DNA of 64,000 nucleotides, taken from assembly GCA_021734245.1 (NCBI GenBank), contig JAIPJH010000004.1:9645-73644 (forward strand), in the 5' to 3' direction. Of the stretch, positions 32,368 to 41,074 are shown piece after piece (within the stretch, counting starts at the first letter, position 1; every line of letters begins with the position of its first letter). The notes beneath the pieces were generated by a model. That model was not told the origin of the DNA. It was given only the letters and a program-made list of their open reading frames with translations, and did not search any database. Position numbers and translations under genes: made by a program. Origin of the DNA: Candidatus Cloacimonadota bacterium. Its GTDB lineage: Bacteria > Cloacimonadota > Cloacimonadia > Cloacimonadales > TCS61.

Positions 32368-32451
32368 TTTTTCGACCACGGATAAACGCAGATAAACACC
32401 GATAACTCTTTAATTCTGTCATTCTACCTGCCAAGCCGAAGTTCTGAATGT

Positions 32452-32544
32452 ATAGGAACGAAGTCTGCTCTTTTAAAGCGACAATGTCGCTTTGCATCAA
32501 AAAATTGATGCAGTCCAAAGTTTTGCATCAAACAAACTCCAAAA
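32452..32544. repeat. Three-hairpin island repeat, copy A (5'-degenerate; hairpins 2 and 3 intact)
   Basis: AGCGAC-aat-GTCGCT and TGCATCAA-aaaa-TTGATGCA, identical to copy D. Ends in CTCCAAAA. Confidence 0.75.
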
Positions 32545-32585
32545 AATTTATTGCCAAAAATCACTATATTTTCATATCTAAACAC

Positions 32586-33302
32586 ATGAAAATCTTAATA
32601 TCTTTTATCGGGAATCATGATCCTTTTGCAGATGATAAAGAAGAACTCGGACCAATTCTTTCTATATTAAAAAAACATAAATTCGATAAACTTTTTCTAT
32701 TATTTAATAATGAGAAATACTGGGATTCACTAAATCGAACACAGCAATTCTGTAATCAGAACTATCCACAAATGAAAGTAGAGTATCGTCTAGCAGAAAC
32801 TTTGAGTCCAATTGATTACAATTTTGTTTATCCTGCTATGTATCAGGTGATTCAGAAATTGAAAAAAGATAATCCAAAAGCGAAATTTACCATTTCGGTT
32901 ACTTCTGGTACACCGACCATGCATGCTTGCTGGCTTTTTTTAGTTCAAGGTGGAGTTATTAACGCAAAACTTATTCAAGTTTCTCGTGAGGCTGGAATTC
33001 AGGAGATAACATTTAAACTAGATGATTTCCCAAAAATAGAAGAAACTCCCGAGATCAAAGCAAAACTTACTCAACTTGCTAGAGAAAACGAGCAACTTAA
33101 GAATTCATTAGATCTCGAGACAGCTCTTAAAAAAGGTTTTTATATACCTGAAGAAGGTTTAGACCTAATAAATGAAATATTACCAGCATATTACAAAGGA
33201 GCTTTAAAGCTTGCTGGTGGAAATGCAGCGAAGGCAGCAAAACTTTTGGGTCTGAAACCACATACTTTCAGAAAGAGGTTAAGAAAATTAGAAATAAAGT
33301 AA
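32586..33302 (+). CDS. RtcR-type CARF domain fused directly to a Fis-type HTH (no sigma54 AAA+ module)
   Basis: MKILISFIGNHDPF... and VTSGTPTMHACWLFLVQGG..AKLIQVS closely parallel E. coli RtcR ITTGTHVAQICWFLL..ARLIQ. The C-terminal GGNAAKAAKLLGLKPHTFRKRLRKL is an HTH_8. Only 238 aa. The tracked 5' extension (32448) only translates the repeat. Confidence 0.75.
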   Translation: MKILISFIGNHDPFADDKEELGPILSILKKHKFDKLFLLFNNEKYWDSLNRTQQFCNQNYPQMKVEYRLAETLSPIDYNFVYPAMYQVIQKLKKDNPKAKFTISVTSGTPTMHACWLFLVQGGVINAKLIQVSREAGIQEITFKLDDFPKIEETPEIKAKLTQLARENEQLKNSLDLETALKKGFYIPEEGLDLINEILPAYYKGALKLAGGNAAKAAKLLGLKPHTFRKRLRKLEIK

Positions 33303-33429
33303 TTTGGAGTAAGGTAATTATTTCCTTTTAGAGTCGGAACGACTATGCTCTTTCAAGCGACTGCGACGCTTTGCATCAAACACTCTACAAGTCTTTCAGA
33401 CTTCTGAGTGATATTGATTCACTCCAAAA
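33303..33429. repeat. Three-hairpin island repeat, copy B (3' half diverged)
   Basis: TTTGGAGTAAGGTAATTATTTCCTTTTAGAGTCGGAACGACT..AGCGACTGCGACGCTTTGCATCAAA.., ending in CTCCAAAA. Begins 1 nt after the CARF-HTH stop. Confidence 0.75.
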
Positions 33430-33595: not shown

Positions 33596-34852
33596 ATGGA
33601 CATCAGAAAATTTTTAGAGCAATTTGATGATTCGGAACTGAAAAATATTGGCGTATTAAATACAAAAAGAAATCTATTAAATTCTAAAAGTGTTGAAAGT
33701 TTAATACAATTAATGAAACAAAGTAATATAGATAAACTAGAAGGACCAGAAGATTGGTTTTTAGATATAAATTATAATTTTTGTAATCCCAAATCAAATC
33801 TAAAACAAACTGGAAATTTAAAACAAAGTCAAACAAGACTTGGAGTTGTTTTTGATTTCCAAAATAACATTTTGAATCCTCATTATAGATCTTTTGATAA
33901 AAACCAAAACAATGAAAATTCCAGTCAAAATTCTCCCCAAGAAATTTACAAACAAAAAATCATATTAGATACTACTGTTTTTGCTAATGAAGATATTTCA
34001 AAACCTGAAAATAGAATCAATTTATCACTTTTCAGTTTATTCCTAATTGATGATTTCAGATCCTGGTTTTTAGAACAGTTTGATCTTCCACAAGATTCTG
34101 TTATTTTCCCTTCGACTAATTTAAAAGGTGGAATCAGACCTGATTTTGCAGTAAATAACAAAGAAGATAAACCAATAGCTTATATAGAAGTTGAGATCGG
34201 AAGAGAAGATATTGGTCAATTACAAAATTTTAGAAGTATGCTAAATGTCCCGGTCTTTTCAGTTTGTGGAAAAAAAGAACATGAAGGACATCTGAGTCTT
34301 TTAGAAATTTATGATAAATTAAACGAAGTAAAAGAAAAAATTAAATCCAAACAATTCAATAAGAATTTTGCTGTTTATGAAACCTTGATTTATGAAAACG
34401 TTCTTTCATATGGACGTGAGAGATATAAATCAACTACAATATCAGATGAAATGAGAAATTCTTTTCTTATTCAAAATCTGATGGATCATTTGGAGATTCA
34501 CGAAGATGTGGGAAGAACTATGAGACCTGGTGAATTTCTGCTTGAAACAAAGAAAGAATTCGGATTCTCTCTTAGAATTTATTCACGAGAATCAAAAATT
34601 AGGAATAGCTTATCCATTATGGCACGATCCGGTGGTAGACCAAGAATCATATTCCCTTCTAAAGAAAAATTAGAGAAATATTTACCTTCGTATAAACAGC
34701 CTGCAATTAACGAATTATGTAATTTTCTAAAAAGGTTTGGTTATCATATTGATACATTACCGGAAAGATCACAAGCAAGAATCGATATAAACCTCGTTGA
34801 GGGAAATATTGATAAATTTATTGCGATTTTGGAAAAATTGGGTGAAATATGA
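33596..34852 (+). CDS. Hypothetical protein with a PD-(D/E)xK-like nuclease core
   Basis: GGAGG RBS. 418 aa. The candidate core GGIRPDFAVNNKEDKPIAYIEVEIGRED has the spacing typical of restriction-endonuclease-fold proteins. The rest is unassignable. Confidence 0.55.
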   Translation: MDIRKFLEQFDDSELKNIGVLNTKRNLLNSKSVESLIQLMKQSNIDKLEGPEDWFLDINYNFCNPKSNLKQTGNLKQSQTRLGVVFDFQNNILNPHYRSFDKNQNNENSSQNSPQEIYKQKIILDTTVFANEDISKPENRINLSLFSLFLIDDFRSWFLEQFDLPQDSVIFPSTNLKGGIRPDFAVNNKEDKPIAYIEVEIGREDIGQLQNFRSMLNVPVFSVCGKKEHEGHLSLLEIYDKLNEVKEKIKSKQFNKNFAVYETLIYENVLSYGRERYKSTTISDEMRNSFLIQNLMDHLEIHEDVGRTMRPGEFLLETKKEFGFSLRIYSRESKIRNSLSIMARSGGRPRIIFPSKEKLEKYLPSYKQPAINELCNFLKRFGYHIDTLPERSQARIDINLVEGNIDKFIAILEKLGEI

Positions 34853-34968
34853 AAATAGATAGAAACGATCCAATTAACAAAATAATATTTCCTGATAAGA
34901 AATCAACAACTGGTTGTATGACATTAATTGTTTGTATTTTATTATGTTTTGAGAGGTTGCATGGATAG
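34849..34968 (+). CDS. 39-aa micro-ORF with a hydrophobic Cys-rich tail, translationally coupled on both sides
   Basis: MKIDRNDPINKIIFPDKKSTTGCMTLIVCILLCFERLHG. Its ATG overlaps the upstream TGA (ATATGA) and its TAG overlaps the downstream ATG (ATGGATAG). It is below the track length cutoff. Confidence 0.3.
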   Translation: MKIDRNDPINKIIFPDKKSTTGCMTLIVCILLCFERLHG

Positions 34969-37378
34969 AAAAAAACAAATTCTAAATGCTATAATCAACA
35001 AGAATTGCAATGAGTTAGTATTTCAAGAAAGTTATGAAGACATTTTAGTAGAAATAACTGATGATTTACTTAAAAATAATGATTTTGTTCCTTGCAGTGT
35101 ATTAAACAGAAGTTTATTTTTATATACATCAGGTTCTGATTTTATACCTTTGGACGAAGAACAAGCCAAAAGAAACAGAATCATTAAACCAATCAAAACA
35201 AAGGTTGAAGCAAGGATTTCAGAAAAATTAATATCCCTTATCAAAACAAATGAAGTTGATTTATTCAATGATTTTTTTCGGGTATTATACAAAAATGAGG
35301 AAGACTATAAAGATTTATTATTCACCTATGACGATAATATTTTTATAGAACTAATTTCTTACATCATTTCAAATGATGATCTTGAATTATTGTTTGATAT
35401 TTTTAAATATTTAAACGACAATTTTAATGTTGATTATAATGAACCAATTGAAAAGATATTCATATACTTCATGGAAAACCGTGATAATAGATTCTATCCT
35501 CAGTTTAAAAAAGAATTAGTGATTTGGTTCAATGAATTTGTTTTTGACGGAACCCCATTAGACATATTCTATGAGCGAAATTTCTTGGATCTTATTGTTA
35601 AATATGATGTTGAGTTAACTGCTGATATTTTAGAGCAATCTCTTCATATTACTAATGATCAAACTGAGGATATGAATATAATTGATATGTTATTAGAATA
35701 TTCGAATTTTTTTGACACTTCAATTGAAAATACCAAAAGAAAAAATATATATGAAGCTCTTAATAAATTTGCTTCCAAATATCCGAGTAGCGAATCAATG
35801 TCTTTATTATTATTTTTTTCAATTATTCAAAATGTAAATGAACCAATTAAAATCTTTAAAAAAATAAAAACTAAAAATCTTAAAAATGAAGTAATCAATT
35901 TAATTTGTAAGAAATATCTGAATCCCAGATTAATTAGATTAGATTTAAAGAATAGAAAAAAAATTGTGGATTTTCTATTAGATCAAAATTTAGATTTCGA
36001 TTTTGAACTAAAAATACTAGAAGCATTTATATCTAACCAAACCACGTTAACTTTACAAAAGGATATATTCAATTTATCAGATTATATTAGAAAATTATAT
36101 CATGCTATGATAGAAGGAATAAACAGAAACAGTGTTGAAAAATCTATAAAAAATGACCTAAAATCGCTTTTGCTTATTATAATTAGATTGTACGATAATA
36201 ATTTTGATATTGAAAATCATAAATTATTTACAAAAATATGTAATTATTTATTTAATTTTACCCCACAAAGATACTATTCTATGTATAATTATTTTGATTC
36301 TATCGATTTATCATATAGTGAATTTGCAAAAACGGGTATAACATCTGGTCCTAGTTTTCATGATCTCAAGTATGAAAAATATGATACATCAATAAAAAAA
36401 GATTATTTTACTTTTAAAATATTTCATAAAATATTCTTCAAATTGAATAAAATATCAGATAACAATAACGAACTTAAAAAATATGTTGATTTGATACATA
36501 AATTGTATAGTTCATTATTTGTCTATACTAGAAATGTGATTTTTATTAATTCAGCTGTCGAAAAAAAAGATGAAATTACTAAAGCACGGGTTGAAGAACG
36601 CAATCGTATTTTGGCAAATCTATCTCATACGGTCAAAAACATGATCGGTACGATTATAGATCCTTTGGAAAATATGAAAAGCCAAAATAAACTTCAACCA
36701 GTTGCAATAGATAATGCAATAAGAGGAGCCAATCTGGTTCGCGGTTTAGTAAATGCAATGAACCTTAGTTTCAAAGGTTCAATAGAAGACTTCCAATACG
36801 ACATAAAAAATGCAGAATACAATAATTCTACTTCTCTAAAACAAATGTTTATAGAGTCCCTTAAATATTCCATTAGCTCGATGTTCGACGGTAAATATTT
36901 TGAAAAATTTATGAGAAATTATTTTCCCAACAAAGCTGAATTTCTGGTAGCAAAAACCAAATGGAACGATGTTTCTCAAACAACAGAAATTCAAAAAATA
37001 ATGGATTTTATGAACACATATATGCTGAAAGCAGAAATTGATCTGGATTCGGCACAGGATTTTGTAATAGGTAATGATAAGGGATCTTCTCTTAAATTCC
37101 TAATTATGATCCAGGAAATGGTTTTCAATGCTGTTAAATATTCTTCCTTCGTTCCCCAGGATGAACGTTTTATCAAAATTGAGTTTTCGGCTGATAATGA
37201 ATATGTTTCCATTCAAGTAAGCAATAAATTCCAACCTAAAACTAAAGTGAAATCTAGTGGTCTTGGACATGAGATAATTAACAATTTTTCTAAATTGCTG
37301 CAAACAAAACCTGATATTAGAACTGAAAATGAAATATATTCGGTAGAAGTGAAGTTCCAAAATTTGTGGGAGGTATAA
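34961..37378 (+). CDS. Atypical histidine-kinase-like protein: ~560-aa uncharacterised helical N-terminal region plus DHp-like and HATPase_c-like C-terminus
   Basis: ATG 34961 with a GAGAGG RBS. H-box-like RILANLSHTVKNMIG, N-box-like QEMVFNAVKYSS, G-box-like SSGLGHEIINNF. No TM segment or signal peptide. Codon usage is very AT-rich. Confidence 0.7.
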   Translation: MDRKKQILNAIINKNCNELVFQESYEDILVEITDDLLKNNDFVPCSVLNRSLFLYTSGSDFIPLDEEQAKRNRIIKPIKTKVEARISEKLISLIKTNEVDLFNDFFRVLYKNEEDYKDLLFTYDDNIFIELISYIISNDDLELLFDIFKYLNDNFNVDYNEPIEKIFIYFMENRDNRFYPQFKKELVIWFNEFVFDGTPLDIFYERNFLDLIVKYDVELTADILEQSLHITNDQTEDMNIIDMLLEYSNFFDTSIENTKRKNIYEALNKFASKYPSSESMSLLLFFSIIQNVNEPIKIFKKIKTKNLKNEVINLICKKYLNPRLIRLDLKNRKKIVDFLLDQNLDFDFELKILEAFISNQTTLTLQKDIFNLSDYIRKLYHAMIEGINRNSVEKSIKNDLKSLLLIIIRLYDNNFDIENHKLFTKICNYLFNFTPQRYYSMYNYFDSIDLSYSEFAKTGITSGPSFHDLKYEKYDTSIKKDYFTFKIFHKIFFKLNKISDNNNELKKYVDLIHKLYSSLFVYTRNVIFINSAVEKKDEITKARVEERNRILANLSHTVKNMIGTIIDPLENMKSQNKLQPVAIDNAIRGANLVRGLVNAMNLSFKGSIEDFQYDIKNAEYNNSTSLKQMFIESLKYSISSMFDGKYFEKFMRNYFPNKAEFLVAKTKWNDVSQTTEIQKIMDFMNTYMLKAEIDLDSAQDFVIGNDKGSSLKFLIMIQEMVFNAVKYSSFVPQDERFIKIEFSADNEYVSIQVSNKFQPKTKVKSSGLGHEIINNFSKLLQTKPDIRTENEIYSVEVKFQNLWEV

Positions 37379-37379
37379 G

Positions 37380-38426
37380 TTGAAAATACTTTATGTGGAA
37401 GATGAACTGACAAAGAATGTTCCCAAAATTATCAGGTTATTCGAGAAATATCTTGGACCTAAAAGAGTAAAGCAGTTAGAAAAACTAGAAAATGATGAGA
37501 GTGGTTACGGTGCTGAACCTCAGGAAATTAAGAGAATAGTTGAATCGTGTGGAGTTGTAGATATTGAATATTGCTTTACTGATAGTTTAAAGAAAATAGT
37601 AGAATTCCAAAATGAATATACAATTTTCATAATTGATAGAAACTTATCTGAAGTAGAGTATGAGTTGGAAGATATACAAAAAATCGGAACAAGCTACAAA
37701 AATGAGTTTTATGATAAATTCTTTGAACGTGAGGGAGATTATTTTCTTGAACTACTTATCTCAGCTAAATTTGATGTAATTAATAATTTTTACTTTCTTA
37801 CAGCTAATTCCCGCGATGATCTGCGAAATGCAGATAGATTAAAAGAGCATTTTGATTTTGGATTATTTAAAGCAAGTAACATCATTGATAAATCTGATAA
37901 TCTGGAAATGCATAAACTAAAGATGCGAATTGAAAATGATGAAAAACTTCAGGTTTTGAAAGATAATATTAGATATGTGCGTATATTGGAAAAAATCGAT
38001 TCTGACGTTTCGGAAAACTTCCTTGACCTTTTAACTCATAAAGATGATTCAAATCAAAATACCATAAGAAAAAATCTTACTACAATAAGAAATATCCTTT
38101 CCGATAATATTCTTCCGGAAATTGCCAGGTTGAAAAATGCTCCTGATTTTTGCTGGAATCCCAAGAATAAGAATCAGATTGTTATGAGAGGAGTTATAAG
38201 TTGGATATGTAATTTCGATAAAGATACGAGAATAAATAATTTTCAATTTAATTCTAATGCTATTATAAAGAATTTTCTATATGATATTCAGGAGATAGCA
38301 AGTGATTATGGTGATCATAAAAATTACAAAAAAAAAGAAAAAACACTTGCTACTAGTGATACCGTAAATTCACTAATATATGCTTTAAAAGATATTATCG
38401 TGTGGTATGATAAGATTCTGGAGTAA
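37380..38426 (+). CDS. Receiver (REC)-like domain protein with an uncharacterised C-terminal effector-like domain
   Basis: TTG start 1 nt after the upstream stop, with a GGGAGG RBS 6 nt upstream. KILYVEDE, TIFIIDRNL (candidate phospho-Asp) and YFLTAN. The C-terminal ~180 aa (TIRKNLTTIRNILSDN ... IQEIASDYGDH ... LIYALKDIIVWY) has no DNA-binding motif that I recognise. Confidence 0.65.
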   Translation: MKILYVEDELTKNVPKIIRLFEKYLGPKRVKQLEKLENDESGYGAEPQEIKRIVESCGVVDIEYCFTDSLKKIVEFQNEYTIFIIDRNLSEVEYELEDIQKIGTSYKNEFYDKFFEREGDYFLELLISAKFDVINNFYFLTANSRDDLRNADRLKEHFDFGLFKASNIIDKSDNLEMHKLKMRIENDEKLQVLKDNIRYVRILEKIDSDVSENFLDLLTHKDDSNQNTIRKNLTTIRNILSDNILPEIARLKNAPDFCWNPKNKNQIVMRGVISWICNFDKDTRINNFQFNSNAIIKNFLYDIQEIASDYGDHKNYKKKEKTLATSDTVNSLIYALKDIIVWYDKILE

Positions 38427-38513
38427 AAGAATTATTTCCTTTTAGAGTCGGAACGACTCTGTTCTTTTCAAGCGACTGCGTCGCTTTGCATCAAAGGATT
38501 GATGCAGTCCAAG
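38420..38513. repeat. Three-hairpin island repeat, copy C
   Basis: GGAGTAA (supplies the stop of the REC gene), then AGAGTCG-gaa-CGACTCT (38444-38460), AGCGAC-tgc-GTCGCT (38471-38485) and TGCATCAA-agga-TTGATGCA (38487-38506). Confidence 0.85.
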
Positions 38514-38545
38514 GGTGTTTTGGAGTACAGCGATCATTCGCTATT

Positions 38546-38656
38546 TTTTGGAGTAAAGGAATTATTTCCTTTTAGAGTCGGAACGACTCTGCTTTTTGGA
38601 AGCGACAATGTCGCTTTGCATCAAAAAATTGATGCAGTCCAAAATTCTCTCCAAAA
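38546..38656. repeat. Three-hairpin island repeat, copy D (most complete; TTTTGGAG...CTCCAAAA termini)
   Basis: Hairpins at 38574-38590, 38601-38615 and 38617-38636. Terminal 8-bp inverted repeat TTTTGGAG (38546-38553) / CTCCAAAA (38649-38656). It abuts the stop of the convergent permease gene. Confidence 0.85.
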
Positions 38657-41074
38657 TTATTCGTATTTCAATGTTTCTACCGGATTCAGGTTAGCTGCTT
38701 TTATGGTTTGCGTACTTATCGTGAAAAGTGCAATAAGTAATATGATAACGCCTGACAAGATAAAAATCCATACACTCATAACAGTTCGATAAGCAAAATT
38801 CTGCAGCCATTTATCCATGGCATACCAGGCAATTGGAATTGCGATAAGATTCGCAACTAAAACCCATTTCACGAAATCTGTCGTCAGCAGTTTTACAACA
38901 CCGGTAGTTGTGGAGCCCAGAACTTTTCTTATACCGATCTCACGATTTCTCTGTTCACTCAAAAAAGAAGCCAGCCCGAATATTCCCAGACAGGCAACGA
39001 AAATTATCAAGATCGAAAAGAAGAAAAACAGCTTTCCCATTTTTTCTTCAGCATTATATAATTGATTATACTCTTCATCCACAAAGCTGTAATCAAACTC
39101 TTCATTCGGAAAAAGCTTCTGATATTCGGTTTTCACTTTTCCAATTAGTTCAGGAAGATCAGTATTATCGGAATATTTAATAATTACATTCTGAAAATAT
39201 GTGTTTTCCATAAATAGTGCTACCGGACTGATCTCTTCTCTTAGAGAGCGATAATGAAAATCTTTCAGAACTCCGATAACTTCGGGTCTGGGAAGTTCTT
39301 CATTCACGTTCATTGTTTGAGATCCTCCACCGATCGGCAGATCAAATTCTGCTCCAATCGGATTTTGCAAACCAAACTCTTTTACAGCAGCTTCATTGAT
39401 GATCACAGCCATATTTTTATCGGAAGCAATATCAGGATCAAAATTTCTGCCTTCCACCAATTCCAGATCGAAGAGCGGAATATAATCATAATCGCAAGTT
39501 AGCGCATTTATCATCATTCCTTCCGGTGGTGTTTCATCATCTCCATCATCTGTTACAGCGTTCATCACCAAAGCTCCACCCGAGCCCGGAGGAGCAAAAC
39601 AGCTTGTTGCCATTTCCACTCCAGGAATTTTCAGTACTTCTTCTTTTAATATTTCTGTATTTTGTCCAGAATCTGGGGTGGGAATGATCAATTTATTTTC
39701 TTTGTCAAATCCCAGATCAACGTTCTTCACATAACTTATCTGTTTAAAAACCGTTATTGTAATAATTATCAAGGAGATCGCAATTGTAAATTGAGTGATC
39801 ACCATGATCTTACGAAATAAAGTTTTTGCTTTTCCGCTTCTGGCTTGGATTGCAGAGATCGGCTTGAAACGTGAAAGGAAAAATGCGGGATACAAACCAG
39901 CCAGAATTCCCACAATGACAGCCAAAACCAAAATGACCAAAATAGTTAAAGGATTTTTCAGATAATTCACGCTCAATTCCCGTCCGATAAAATTATTTAA
40001 CTCCGGGTACAGGAACGAAAAAATGATCAATCCCAAAACTACCGAAATCAGAGTTATTAAAATTGATTCACTCAAAAATTGACGGATCAATTGAGATTTA
40101 TTGGATCCGAAAACTTTTCGCATTCCCACTTCCTTGGAGCGATGGGCAGAACGAGCAGTAGAAAGATTCATGAAATTAAGGCAGGCAATCAGCATTATGA
40201 GAAACGCAATTGCCGAAAACAGGTACACCTGATCGATATCTCCACTGGGACTGAACTCATTATTGATATGAGAATAAAAATAAATTTCTTTGAAAGGCTG
40301 CACCATCAGAATTATCATAGAAGCCATTGCTGAATTTGTTTTTTTCAATACCAGGTCGGGAAGTTTAGCTTCAAATTCTTCCGGAATAAGATTTTCATCT
40401 GCCAGAATATATACATGATCTGTTCCGAACTGTCCCCATTGTTCACTATACATCCCCATTGCTTTCAAACTGGAATAAGAAGCCAGAACATCAAAATCCA
40501 TTTGAGTATTGGTTGCCGGTTTTTCCATAATTCCTGTAATAGTGAATATGTTGCCATTTTCGTCGGAAAGTGTTTTGCCCACAATAAATTCATTTCCAAA
40601 ATATTTTTCAGCTGTTTGTTGTGATATTACTATCGAAAATGGTTCGGTCAATACATCCTGCTTATCACCAGAAATAAGTTCAAAACTGAAAATATCGAAA
40701 AAAGAAGATTCTGTAAACACAACATCCATCTCACCCAATTCTCTGTTATCATATTCAAATTGGTAATCCGGCTGCATCTGCCGAATTCGTACTGCATCAA
40801 TTACTTCGGGAAATTCTTCTTCCAGAGCTGGAGCCAGGGGCGGCATTACAGAAGCAAAGGGGATTTTGTTGTCGCCGTGAGACAAATTTACAGCTATCCG
40901 GTAGATATTATCACCATTCTTGTGCATTTTTTCGAAGCTGATTTCATTATTCACAAATAATAAAATTAGTAAACAACTCGCCAATCCAATAGCAAAACCA
41001 ATGATGTTTATGGCTGAATAAGTTTTGTTTTTCCAAATATTGCGAAAGGCAATTTTAAAATAATTTTTAATCAT
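38657..41074 (-). CDS. MacB/FtsX-type ABC transporter permease (two FtsX modules)
   Basis: 805 aa. N-terminus IKNYFKIAFRNIWKNKTYSAINIIGFAIG. Two MacB_PCD/FtsX repeats (RSKEVGMRKVFGS, RNREIGIRKVLGS). Confidence 0.88.
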   Translation of the reverse strand: MIKNYFKIAFRNIWKNKTYSAINIIGFAIGLASCLLILLFVNNEISFEKMHKNGDNIYRIAVNLSHGDNKIPFASVMPPLAPALEEEFPEVIDAVRIRQMQPDYQFEYDNRELGEMDVVFTESSFFDIFSFELISGDKQDVLTEPFSIVISQQTAEKYFGNEFIVGKTLSDENGNIFTITGIMEKPATNTQMDFDVLASYSSLKAMGMYSEQWGQFGTDHVYILADENLIPEEFEAKLPDLVLKKTNSAMASMIILMVQPFKEIYFYSHINNEFSPSGDIDQVYLFSAIAFLIMLIACLNFMNLSTARSAHRSKEVGMRKVFGSNKSQLIRQFLSESILITLISVVLGLIIFSFLYPELNNFIGRELSVNYLKNPLTILVILVLAVIVGILAGLYPAFFLSRFKPISAIQARSGKAKTLFRKIMVITQFTIAISLIIITITVFKQISYVKNVDLGFDKENKLIIPTPDSGQNTEILKEEVLKIPGVEMATSCFAPPGSGGALVMNAVTDDGDDETPPEGMMINALTCDYDYIPLFDLELVEGRNFDPDIASDKNMAVIINEAAVKEFGLQNPIGAEFDLPIGGGSQTMNVNEELPRPEVIGVLKDFHYRSLREEISPVALFMENTYFQNVIIKYSDNTDLPELIGKVKTEYQKLFPNEEFDYSFVDEEYNQLYNAEEKMGKLFFFFSILIIFVACLGIFGLASFLSEQRNREIGIRKVLGSTTTGVVKLLTTDFVKWVLVANLIAIPIAWYAMDKWLQNFAYRTVMSVWIFILSGVIILLIALFTISTQTIKAANLNPVETLKYE

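Follow-up and report, generated by a model that had tools for sequence, protein, structure and literature searches.

To our knowledge, Detocs is the only validated two-component phosphorelay that is used directly as an immune system. Its detection requires all three of the genes dtcA, dtcB (encoding a stand-alone receiver) and dtcC, and its effector is a PNP in 80% of systems and otherwise a restriction endonuclease (REase), a TOPRIM or a transmembrane hydrolase (Rousset et al., bioRxiv 10.1101/2023.01.24.525353). RtcR-like regulators head defence operons containing HEPN RNases (PMC11090510), and RtcR itself senses tRNA fragments with cyclic phosphate ends (PMC10159003). Here, we analysed a stretch of 64,000 nucleotides from a Candidatus Cloacimonadota bacterium (contig JAIPJH010000004.1; the whole stretch is hereafter called the window) and describe a cassette encoding a histidine kinase, a receiver protein whose C-terminal domain we designate X, and an RtcR-like regulator with a CARF domain. 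The kinase-receiver pair looks like an unrecognised two-component defence module and not like an ordinary gene regulator.

The kinase-receiver-X system resembles Detocs in that a soluble kinase, which carries TPR repeats in many relatives, is followed by a receiver with a non-DNA-binding C-terminus, and in that it lies among defence genes and has a modular effector end. By contrast, the system of the window has no stand-alone buffer receiver DtcB, X is an unclassified helical domain and not a PNP, REase, TOPRIM or transmembrane hydrolase, the receiver contains large insertions, and an RtcR-like CARF regulator belongs to the cassette. Because the three-gene definition of Detocs does not cover it, the system was not filed as Detocs; it is not a member, being set apart by its gene content and by the description of its effector. 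An earlier note on this DNA, made from the sequence of the window, had proposed a Detocs-like logic for the pair, and the parallel in architecture is borne out, whereas under the same definition the pair falls outside Detocs proper. The lack of a PADLOC match was set aside as a test of Detocs membership, as CheY itself matched no Dtc model.

A cognate kinase-receiver pair with a conserved RtcR-like regulator

The kinase gene (34961..37378, forward strand) runs from ATG 34961, behind a GAGAGG ribosome-binding site, to TAA 37378 and encodes 805 amino acids. One spacer base separates its stop codon from the next gene, gene D (37380..38426, forward strand), which encodes the receiver-X protein of 348 amino acids and begins at TTG 37380 with GGGAGG 8 nucleotides before it. 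The kinase contains the motifs LSHTVKN at residue 554 (His556), FNAVKYS at 722 (Asn723) and SGLGHEI at 766, and the receiver protein contains YVEDE at 5, IIDRNL at 84 (Asp86), LTAN at 140 (Thr141), RKNLTTIRNILSDN at 230 and ASDYGDH at 307. Neither protein has a transmembrane-like segment, the 19-residue Kyte-Doolittle mean reaching at most 1.21 in the kinase and 1.13 in the receiver protein. The description in the earlier note of two adjacent reading frames of 805 and 348 codons, of a kinase free of transmembrane segments, of a 1-nucleotide gap with a GGGAGG ribosome-binding site before the second gene, and of the kinase and receiver motifs was thus accurate throughout. Its picture of a two-gene unit was incomplete: the pair is real, but an RtcR-like regulator with a CARF domain and a helix-turn-helix (HTH), encoded by gene A, and a further gene, gene B, lie in the same cassette and had been overlooked. 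At the centre of a conserved cassette stands the pair; the cassette has three parts, or four in the lineage of the window.

The 348-residue receiver protein matched no model in Pfam, NCBIfam or PADLOC, and more than 229 homologues were found at 36-74% identity. Its AlphaFold2 model (pLDDT 90) consists of a five-stranded alpha/beta domain at residues 1-172 (REC; 37380..37895, forward strand) and a helical domain at residues 174-347. Foldseek matched REC to the receiver domains 3kto, 8phx and 3jte, with probabilities of 0.96-0.99 and a target template modelling (TM) score of ~0.6. Asp8, Asp86, Thr141 and Lys171 were invariant in 32 homologues, and Glu7 was nearly so. These phospho-chemistry residues, namely the acidic pair Glu7/Asp8, the phospho-acceptor Asp86 (37635-37637), Thr141 (37800-37802) and Lys171 (37890-37892), all on the forward strand, close predicted strands 1, 3, 4 and 5 (residues 2-6, 80-86, 137-141 and 168-170), as in CheY-like receivers. 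The domain also holds two large insertions, with an invariant REGDY motif (117-121) in the inserted sequence. Alignment of the receiver family with E. coli CheY by hhalign was negative, and the profile of the whole receiver family found no significant match in PDB. The profile of a compact sister class (class 2, see below) matched PDB receivers by sequence (2rjn, 2.5e-7; 3a0r, 2e-5), and hhalign joined class 1, the family of gene D, to class 2 with a probability of 99.8% in an alignment from strand 3 to the C-terminus. Because the predicted fold, the Foldseek matches, the invariant residues and this transitive sequence link via class 2 agree, we regard the assignment of the N-terminal domain of gene D as a true, insert-rich receiver as secure, in line with the REC protein that the earlier note had recognised.

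On its own, the kinase of the window gave sub-threshold Pfam matches (GHKL, E=0.005-0.07; HATPase_c, E=0.03-0.2). Its last ~270 residues, however, share 38-58% identity with the C-terminal part of each protein whose gene directly precedes a gene D homologue, and across 16 aligned cores the Ser-His of the H-box, the Asn of the N-box and the Gly-x-Gly of the G-box were invariant. Pfam HisKA matched 14 of the 16 cores (best 8e-6), the GHKL model HATPase_c_5 matched 12 (best 2e-6) and HATPase_c matched 5; above-threshold precomputed HisKA/HATPase_c annotations were present for some members, for example P0144. A search of PDB with the profile of the kinase-core family gave no significant match. Because the family-level comparison, and not the window protein alone, gives convincing matches, we accept the 805-residue protein as a predicted divergent, soluble HisKA-type histidine kinase with a GHKL domain, and the kinase-like C-terminal module that had been noticed by eye is thereby upheld. 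This core (residues 535-805; 36563..37378) comprises the DHp H-box with His556 (36626-36628), an insert of ~110 residues, and the GHKL domain with N-box Asn723 (37127-37129) and G-box Gly767/Gly769 (37259-37267), all on the forward strand.

The remainder of the kinase, residues 1-534 (34961..36562, forward strand), is the presumed sensor. These N-terminal ~535 residues had no match in Pfam or NCBIfam and are common to only five proteins, four from databases and one from a related locus, among them P0002-P0004 and a 769-residue protein of locus L001. The N-termini of the other partner kinases are unrelated or, commonly, consist of TPR repeats. By sequence comparison, the N-terminus is thus the variable, lineage-specific part of the system, and the conserved parts are the kinase core and the receiver-X protein; the emphasis of the earlier note on the huge N-terminus as the notable feature has to be reversed.

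Conservation was followed in 25 class-1 loci, which came from look-ups of exact proteins and from scanning a single genome for each species. Upstream DNA was available for 24 of them, and in every one the gene just before the receiver gene encoded a kinase core, frequently with a 4-nucleotide overlap. Sixteen loci extended 4 kb or more upstream; in 14 of these, a gene for a CARF-(sigma54 AAA+)-HTH regulator lay upstream on the same strand, and the weaker regulator matches still aligned over the CARF part. The short contig L022 has its regulator downstream, on the other strand. When the neighbourhoods were clustered all against all, no families apart from regulator, kinase and receiver-X proved to be conserved in the 25 loci, which places the output in one of these three. 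The missing buffer receiver of the earlier note was confirmed by this clustering, as a stand-alone receiver was neither present in the window nor conserved across the 25 loci. Comparison of the loci therefore establishes that kinase and receiver are cognate partners, that the phospho-chemistry residues are intact and that an RtcR-like regulator is conserved with the pair. A search with the profile of the X domain yielded 287 cluster representatives (~290 clusters at 50% identity) from Cloacimonadota, Desulfobacterota, Spirochaetota, Verrucomicrobiota and other phyla; by sequence, the receiver-X proteins thus form a widespread, unannotated family that is served by kinases of its own and accompanied by a CARF regulator.

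The loci L001, L005 and L017 each contain more than one kinase or paralogous pair. In L017 (L017:6283-16835), they form an array of a kinase (870 amino acids), a receiver-X protein (335), a second kinase (824) and an enlarged receiver-X protein (532), which then ends with two stand-alone kinase cores (262 and 270).

Gene A (32586..33302, forward strand; 238 amino acids) matched RtcR (4e-10), Csm6 CARF (2e-6) and HTH_8 (4e-6) in Pfam, RtcR_PspF2 CARF_AAA_HTH in PADLOC (3e-31), and Csm6 (2e-16) and RtcR (2.5e-5) in NCBIfam. These profile matches identify it as an RtcR-like CARF regulator with a Fis-type HTH, minus the sigma54 AAA+ domain, which is absent from the 238-residue protein. Regulators with that domain, the usual form among the relatives, are encoded in L003, L013, L014, L017, L023 and other loci, and the one in L003 matched the RtcR model over residues 35-421 (E 5e-82). 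Gene A is 68% identical to the regulator of L001, which begins at the equivalent Met, and its true start is probably ATG 32586 and not the start of the open reading frame at 32448. The mechanical reading frame begins 46 codons early (32448-32585), and its extra part translates the left copy of a repeat described below.

The cassette resembles RtcR-headed operons, namely rtcBA, which serves RNA repair, and the RtcR-associated defence superoperons of CoCoNuT types II and III-A (PMC11090510, PMC10159003), in that an RtcR-type CARF-(sigma54 AAA+)-HTH gene lies upstream in the same direction and in that ancillary genes are sometimes inserted before the core genes; the genes controlled in CoCoNuT include HEPN RNases (PMC11090510). 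It differs from them in that the genes controlled here would be a kinase-receiver pair and not RtcA/RtcB or McrBC-type nucleases. Unlike the regulators of RtcR operons, moreover, those of the window and of related Cloacimonadota have lost the AAA+ domain and therefore cannot act as sigma54 activators.

Class 2, which was found by the X profile search, comprises proteins of ~300 amino acids with the same X domain and a compact N-terminal receiver, and was sampled in 56 metagenome loci (L028-L083) by a scan with a narrower alignment. A kinase gene precedes the receiver-X gene in 38 of 53 of these loci, and a CARF regulator is present in three or four. The sampled class-2 kinases combine a type I N6-adenine methyltransferase, an HsdS-like specificity (TRD) module and a HATPase_c core (MTase_I, Specificity_I), for instance at L031:3530-6178, L072:2238-7991, L030:785-2962 and L081:5256-7865. 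From its domain content, this architecture looks like restriction-modification wired to a phosphorelay, and the methyltransferase-specificity kinases suggest that the family watches for foreign nucleic acid or invader proteins. The HsdM-like methyltransferase and HsdS-like specificity modules are shared with type I restriction-modification, whereas HsdR is absent and a kinase core and receiver-X stand in its place; the kinase of the window itself has neither a methyltransferase nor a specificity module. The searchable literature, which is incomplete, contained no description of the receiver-X family or of fusions of methyltransferase-specificity modules to kinases.

The X domain and its possible roles

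The X domain of gene D (residues 173-348; 37896..38426, forward strand) is all-helical in its AlphaFold2 model (pLDDT 92), with four core helices and a 40-residue insert. Its sequence matched no family in Pfam, NCBIfam or PADLOC, its profile matched no PDB sequence, and a scan of 72 family members gave no match to an HTH or winged-helix model, in keeping with the lack of a recognisable HTH in the C-terminus that the earlier note had reported; nor did the Pfam scan detect another standard output domain. X is, by these searches, a previously undescribed output domain that matches no known family.

Structural comparison gave weak matches of one kind. Foldseek searches of X against PDB returned E values of 0.9-5.5, none significant, with probabilities of at most 0.89. 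Nearly all hits with a query TM score above 0.4 were HEPN domains, the sole exception being the de novo design 8ka6; the HEPN hits were 2hsb, 1wol, sacsin 3o10, 1ufb, 2q00 and the LsoA toxin 5hy3, followed by the HEPN toxin 7bxo with a query TM of 0.39, so that the seven HEPN domains span query TM scores of 0.39-0.48. DNA-binding domains were not found among the fold hits with a reasonable TM score. The best whole-chain match of the receiver protein was the CARF-HEPN RNase Csm6 (6tug; E=0.04). Like Csm6/Csx1 of type III CRISPR-Cas, the receiver protein joins an alpha/beta sensor domain at its N-terminus to a helical domain at its C-terminus; unlike them, it has a phospho-accepting receiver in place of a ligand-binding CARF and an X domain without Rx4-6H, and the similarity is weak for the whole chain as well as for X alone. 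At the sequence level, Pfam HEPN_AbiU2 touched one of 32 members (E 0.008) and none of 40 class-2 members, and hhalign of X with three MNT-type HEPN proteins from neighbouring loci was negative. A search of viral folds in BFVD was uninformative.

Residue conservation was measured over 220 X domains (177 of class 1 and 43 of class 2). Arg237 (38088-38090), which lies in helix 2, was kept in 98-100%, His313 (38316-38318) in 96-98% and Trp342 in 100% of the domains; Asp338 was also near-universal, Ser308, Gly311 and Thr328 were kept in ~90%, and Thr325 in 77-89%. The segment S308-D-x-G-x-H313 occupies the position of the HEPN Rx4-6H motif, with a conserved Ser replacing the Arg. The HEPN resemblance that the earlier note had judged by eye is thus echoed by weak fold matches and not by sequence homology or an Rx4-6H motif, and we treat a HEPN-like fold with a non-canonical site, as the model suggests it, as a lead and not as a result.

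One further protein with this domain, P0199 (L027:140-1984; 614 amino acids), joins TPR repeats straight to X, without a kinase or receiver, and may be a one-component version; it was given little weight because it comes from a single contig of ~2 kb.

With roughly even confidence, we favour the interpretation that the cassette is a phosphorylation-gated effector system with Detocs-like logic, that is, a defence module with a kinase-receiver-X core. The soluble kinase would autophosphorylate on His556 in its predicted HisKA/GHKL core, with the variable N-terminus serving as the input and possibly sensing an invader-related cue, and would, as conservation suggests, phosphorylate the receiver protein, the product of the translationally coupled gene that follows, on Asp86. 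Phosphorylation may then release or assemble X, which would act directly as an effector and not as a transcription factor, most likely as a HEPN-like RNase using Arg237 and His313, leading to growth arrest or abortive infection. By synteny and by analogy with RtcR, the CARF-HTH regulator would control transcription of the cassette upon a nucleotide or RNA-end ligand, and two signals, CARF licensing and a kinase-sensor trigger, would be needed in place of the buffer receiver of Detocs. The neighbours of the loci include type I restriction enzymes, AriA/PtuA/AbiL-type ATPases, MNT-HEPN and ParE modules, and the exchangeable, multiplied sensors, the methyltransferase-specificity kinases and these defence-gene neighbours point to a conflict system. 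Also in favour of this reading are the low GC of the island (see below), the RtcR-headed defence operons with HEPN RNases (PMC11090510), the retention of X in loci that lack the regulator and the sigma54-type promoter match in L007.

A more elaborate version of this scheme, which we consider rather unlikely as a whole, is a two-key immune module in which the CARF regulator would license expression of the cassette on sensing a cyclic nucleotide or damaged RNA ends. A soluble kinase, whose sensor could be exchanged between helical or TPR repeats and a DNA-reading type I methyltransferase-specificity module, would phosphorylate the receiver and so activate a hitherto unknown class of helical nuclease with a split Arg/His site, and any 2',3'-cyclic phosphate ends made by X would feed back on the CARF regulator; class 2 would then be restriction-modification with His-Asp phosphotransfer in place of HsdR.

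The defence role and the effector chemistry of the kinase-receiver-X system are put forward as hypotheses. If they are true, the system would represent a second, structurally different branch beside Detocs, with a novel output domain and a novel safeguard against self-damage, in which CARF-controlled transcription takes the place of a buffer receiver. Class 2 would wire DNA methyltransferase-specificity modules to a kinase, a testable link would exist between RtcR-type RNA-damage sensing and phosphorelay signalling, and X would provide a domain name for a family that Pfam, NCBIfam and PADLOC do not cover.

A number of observations weigh against a defence module with a HEPN-like effector. The enrichment of defence genes among the neighbours was judged without a background comparison, no antitoxin or immunity gene was conserved in the neighbourhood clustering, and a scan of viral contigs found no relatives. 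The canonical Rx4-6H motif is absent from X, and the HEPN assignment consists of the above Foldseek matches on a four-helix bundle, without sequence support. ATP binding by the kinase is predicted only, with a G1 box that appears degenerate by inspection. Scans for sigma54 promoters gave matches that were not above chance overall, with one well-placed site, in L007, and the mode of action of gene A differs from that of RtcR because the AAA+ domain is absent.

Alternatively, the pair could be an ordinary regulatory two-component system without a toxic effector, with X as a protein-protein output that modulates the CARF/sigma54 regulator, RNA polymerase or another partner in a response to RNA damage or stress, which we judge somewhat unlikely. 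The tight linkage of the CARF regulator to the pair in class-1 loci (14 of 16) would fit such a role, as would the absence from X of a recognisable catalytic motif and of sequence relatives of known function, and RtcR itself is reported to be under the control of proteins binding to its CARF domain (PMC9650030). The fold hits also included receiver proteins of the PhyR type, in which a helical domain binds a partner, but these matches run through the receiver domain of PhyR only. Moreover, L005, L024 and most class-2 loci keep the pair but have no regulator, and because of this persistence an action of X on the CARF regulator was deemed less likely; no other conserved partner gene was found. 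Variable and multiplied sensors, methyltransferase-specificity kinases and defence neighbours likewise speak against a regulatory output, and the near-universal Arg and His of X look more catalytic than interface-like.

It is quite improbable that X represents a new kind of all-helical domain that binds nucleic acids, with the receiver protein acting as the transcription factor of a distant regulon. Most response regulators are transcription factors and helical bundles can bind DNA, and the lack of a family match for X would allow this. However, the HTH and winged-helix models and the better-scoring fold hits offered no DNA-binding domain, the cassette already encodes a dedicated HTH regulator, and an effector partner fits the methyltransferase-specificity kinases of class 2 better than a transcription factor does. 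We consider it very improbable that the upstream protein is a GHKL-type ATPase or a pseudokinase and that the pair works without His-Asp phosphotransfer: the window protein falls below the Pfam threshold, its ATP lid is very short in sequence, its G1 box is degenerate and its family profile has no significant PDB match, but no aligned core departs from the His of the H-box, the Asn of the N-box or the glycines of the G-box, 14 of 16 cores are matched by HisKA, some members such as P0144 are annotated as HisKA/HATPase_c, and the partner keeps all its receiver phospho-chemistry residues invariant.

Accessory gene, promoters and repeats

Gene B (33596..34852, forward strand; 418 amino acids), the fourth gene of the cassette in the lineage of the window, lies between the regulator and the kinase and had no match in Pfam, PADLOC, NCBIfam or PDB; a PD-(D/E)xK-like stretch (GGIRPDFAV...AYIEVEIG) was recognised by eye. 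It is 53% identical to an open reading frame at the same position in L010 (L010:5411-6652), where the order is also regulator, gene B, kinase, receiver, and residues 943-1040 of the 1917-residue class-2 methyltransferase-kinase of L072 share 53% identity with its first 97 residues. Because it occupies the same place in L010 and its N-terminal domain is fused into the L072 kinase, sequence comparison marks gene B as a lineage-specific accessory.

In L007, whose regulator carries a sigma54 AAA+ domain, a sigma54-type promoter match, TGGCATGAGGGTTGCT (TGGCAT-N5-TTGCT; L007:5511-5526), lies 76 nucleotides upstream of the kinase gene. In the window, no sigma54 site was present in the intergenic DNA preceding gene B or gene C (the kinase gene), in keeping with the lack of an AAA+ domain in gene A.

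The cassette sits in a low-GC stretch of ~6 kb (GC 0.27-0.32, compared with ~0.37 around it) that is bordered by housekeeping genes. A multi-hairpin repeat of ~100-130 nucleotides with four short hairpins is present in the window in 4 copies, against 0.24 expected by chance, and folds far better than shuffled sequence (z-score -7.0). Within the window, it is confined to the edges of the low-GC island and to the positions right after genes A and D, all on the forward strand: the left copy (32422-32518) lies at the island boundary upstream of gene A, another (33303-33390) begins at the gene A stop codon and has a terminator-like hairpin at 33332-33344, and two tandem copies (38416-38512 and 38546-38642) begin in the last codons of gene D and have terminator-like hairpins with a T-run at 38443-38461 and 38573-38591. 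The repeat had no Rfam match and was absent from related loci; given these results and the terminator-like hairpins, it was rejected as a system-specific RNA. Because terminator-like hairpins follow both gene A and the receiver gene, two transcription units are suggested, one of gene A alone and one of gene B, kinase and receiver, the latter likely ending in the tandem repeats (38416..38642). A reading frame of 97 codons (38499-38792) reads through the right repeat copies.

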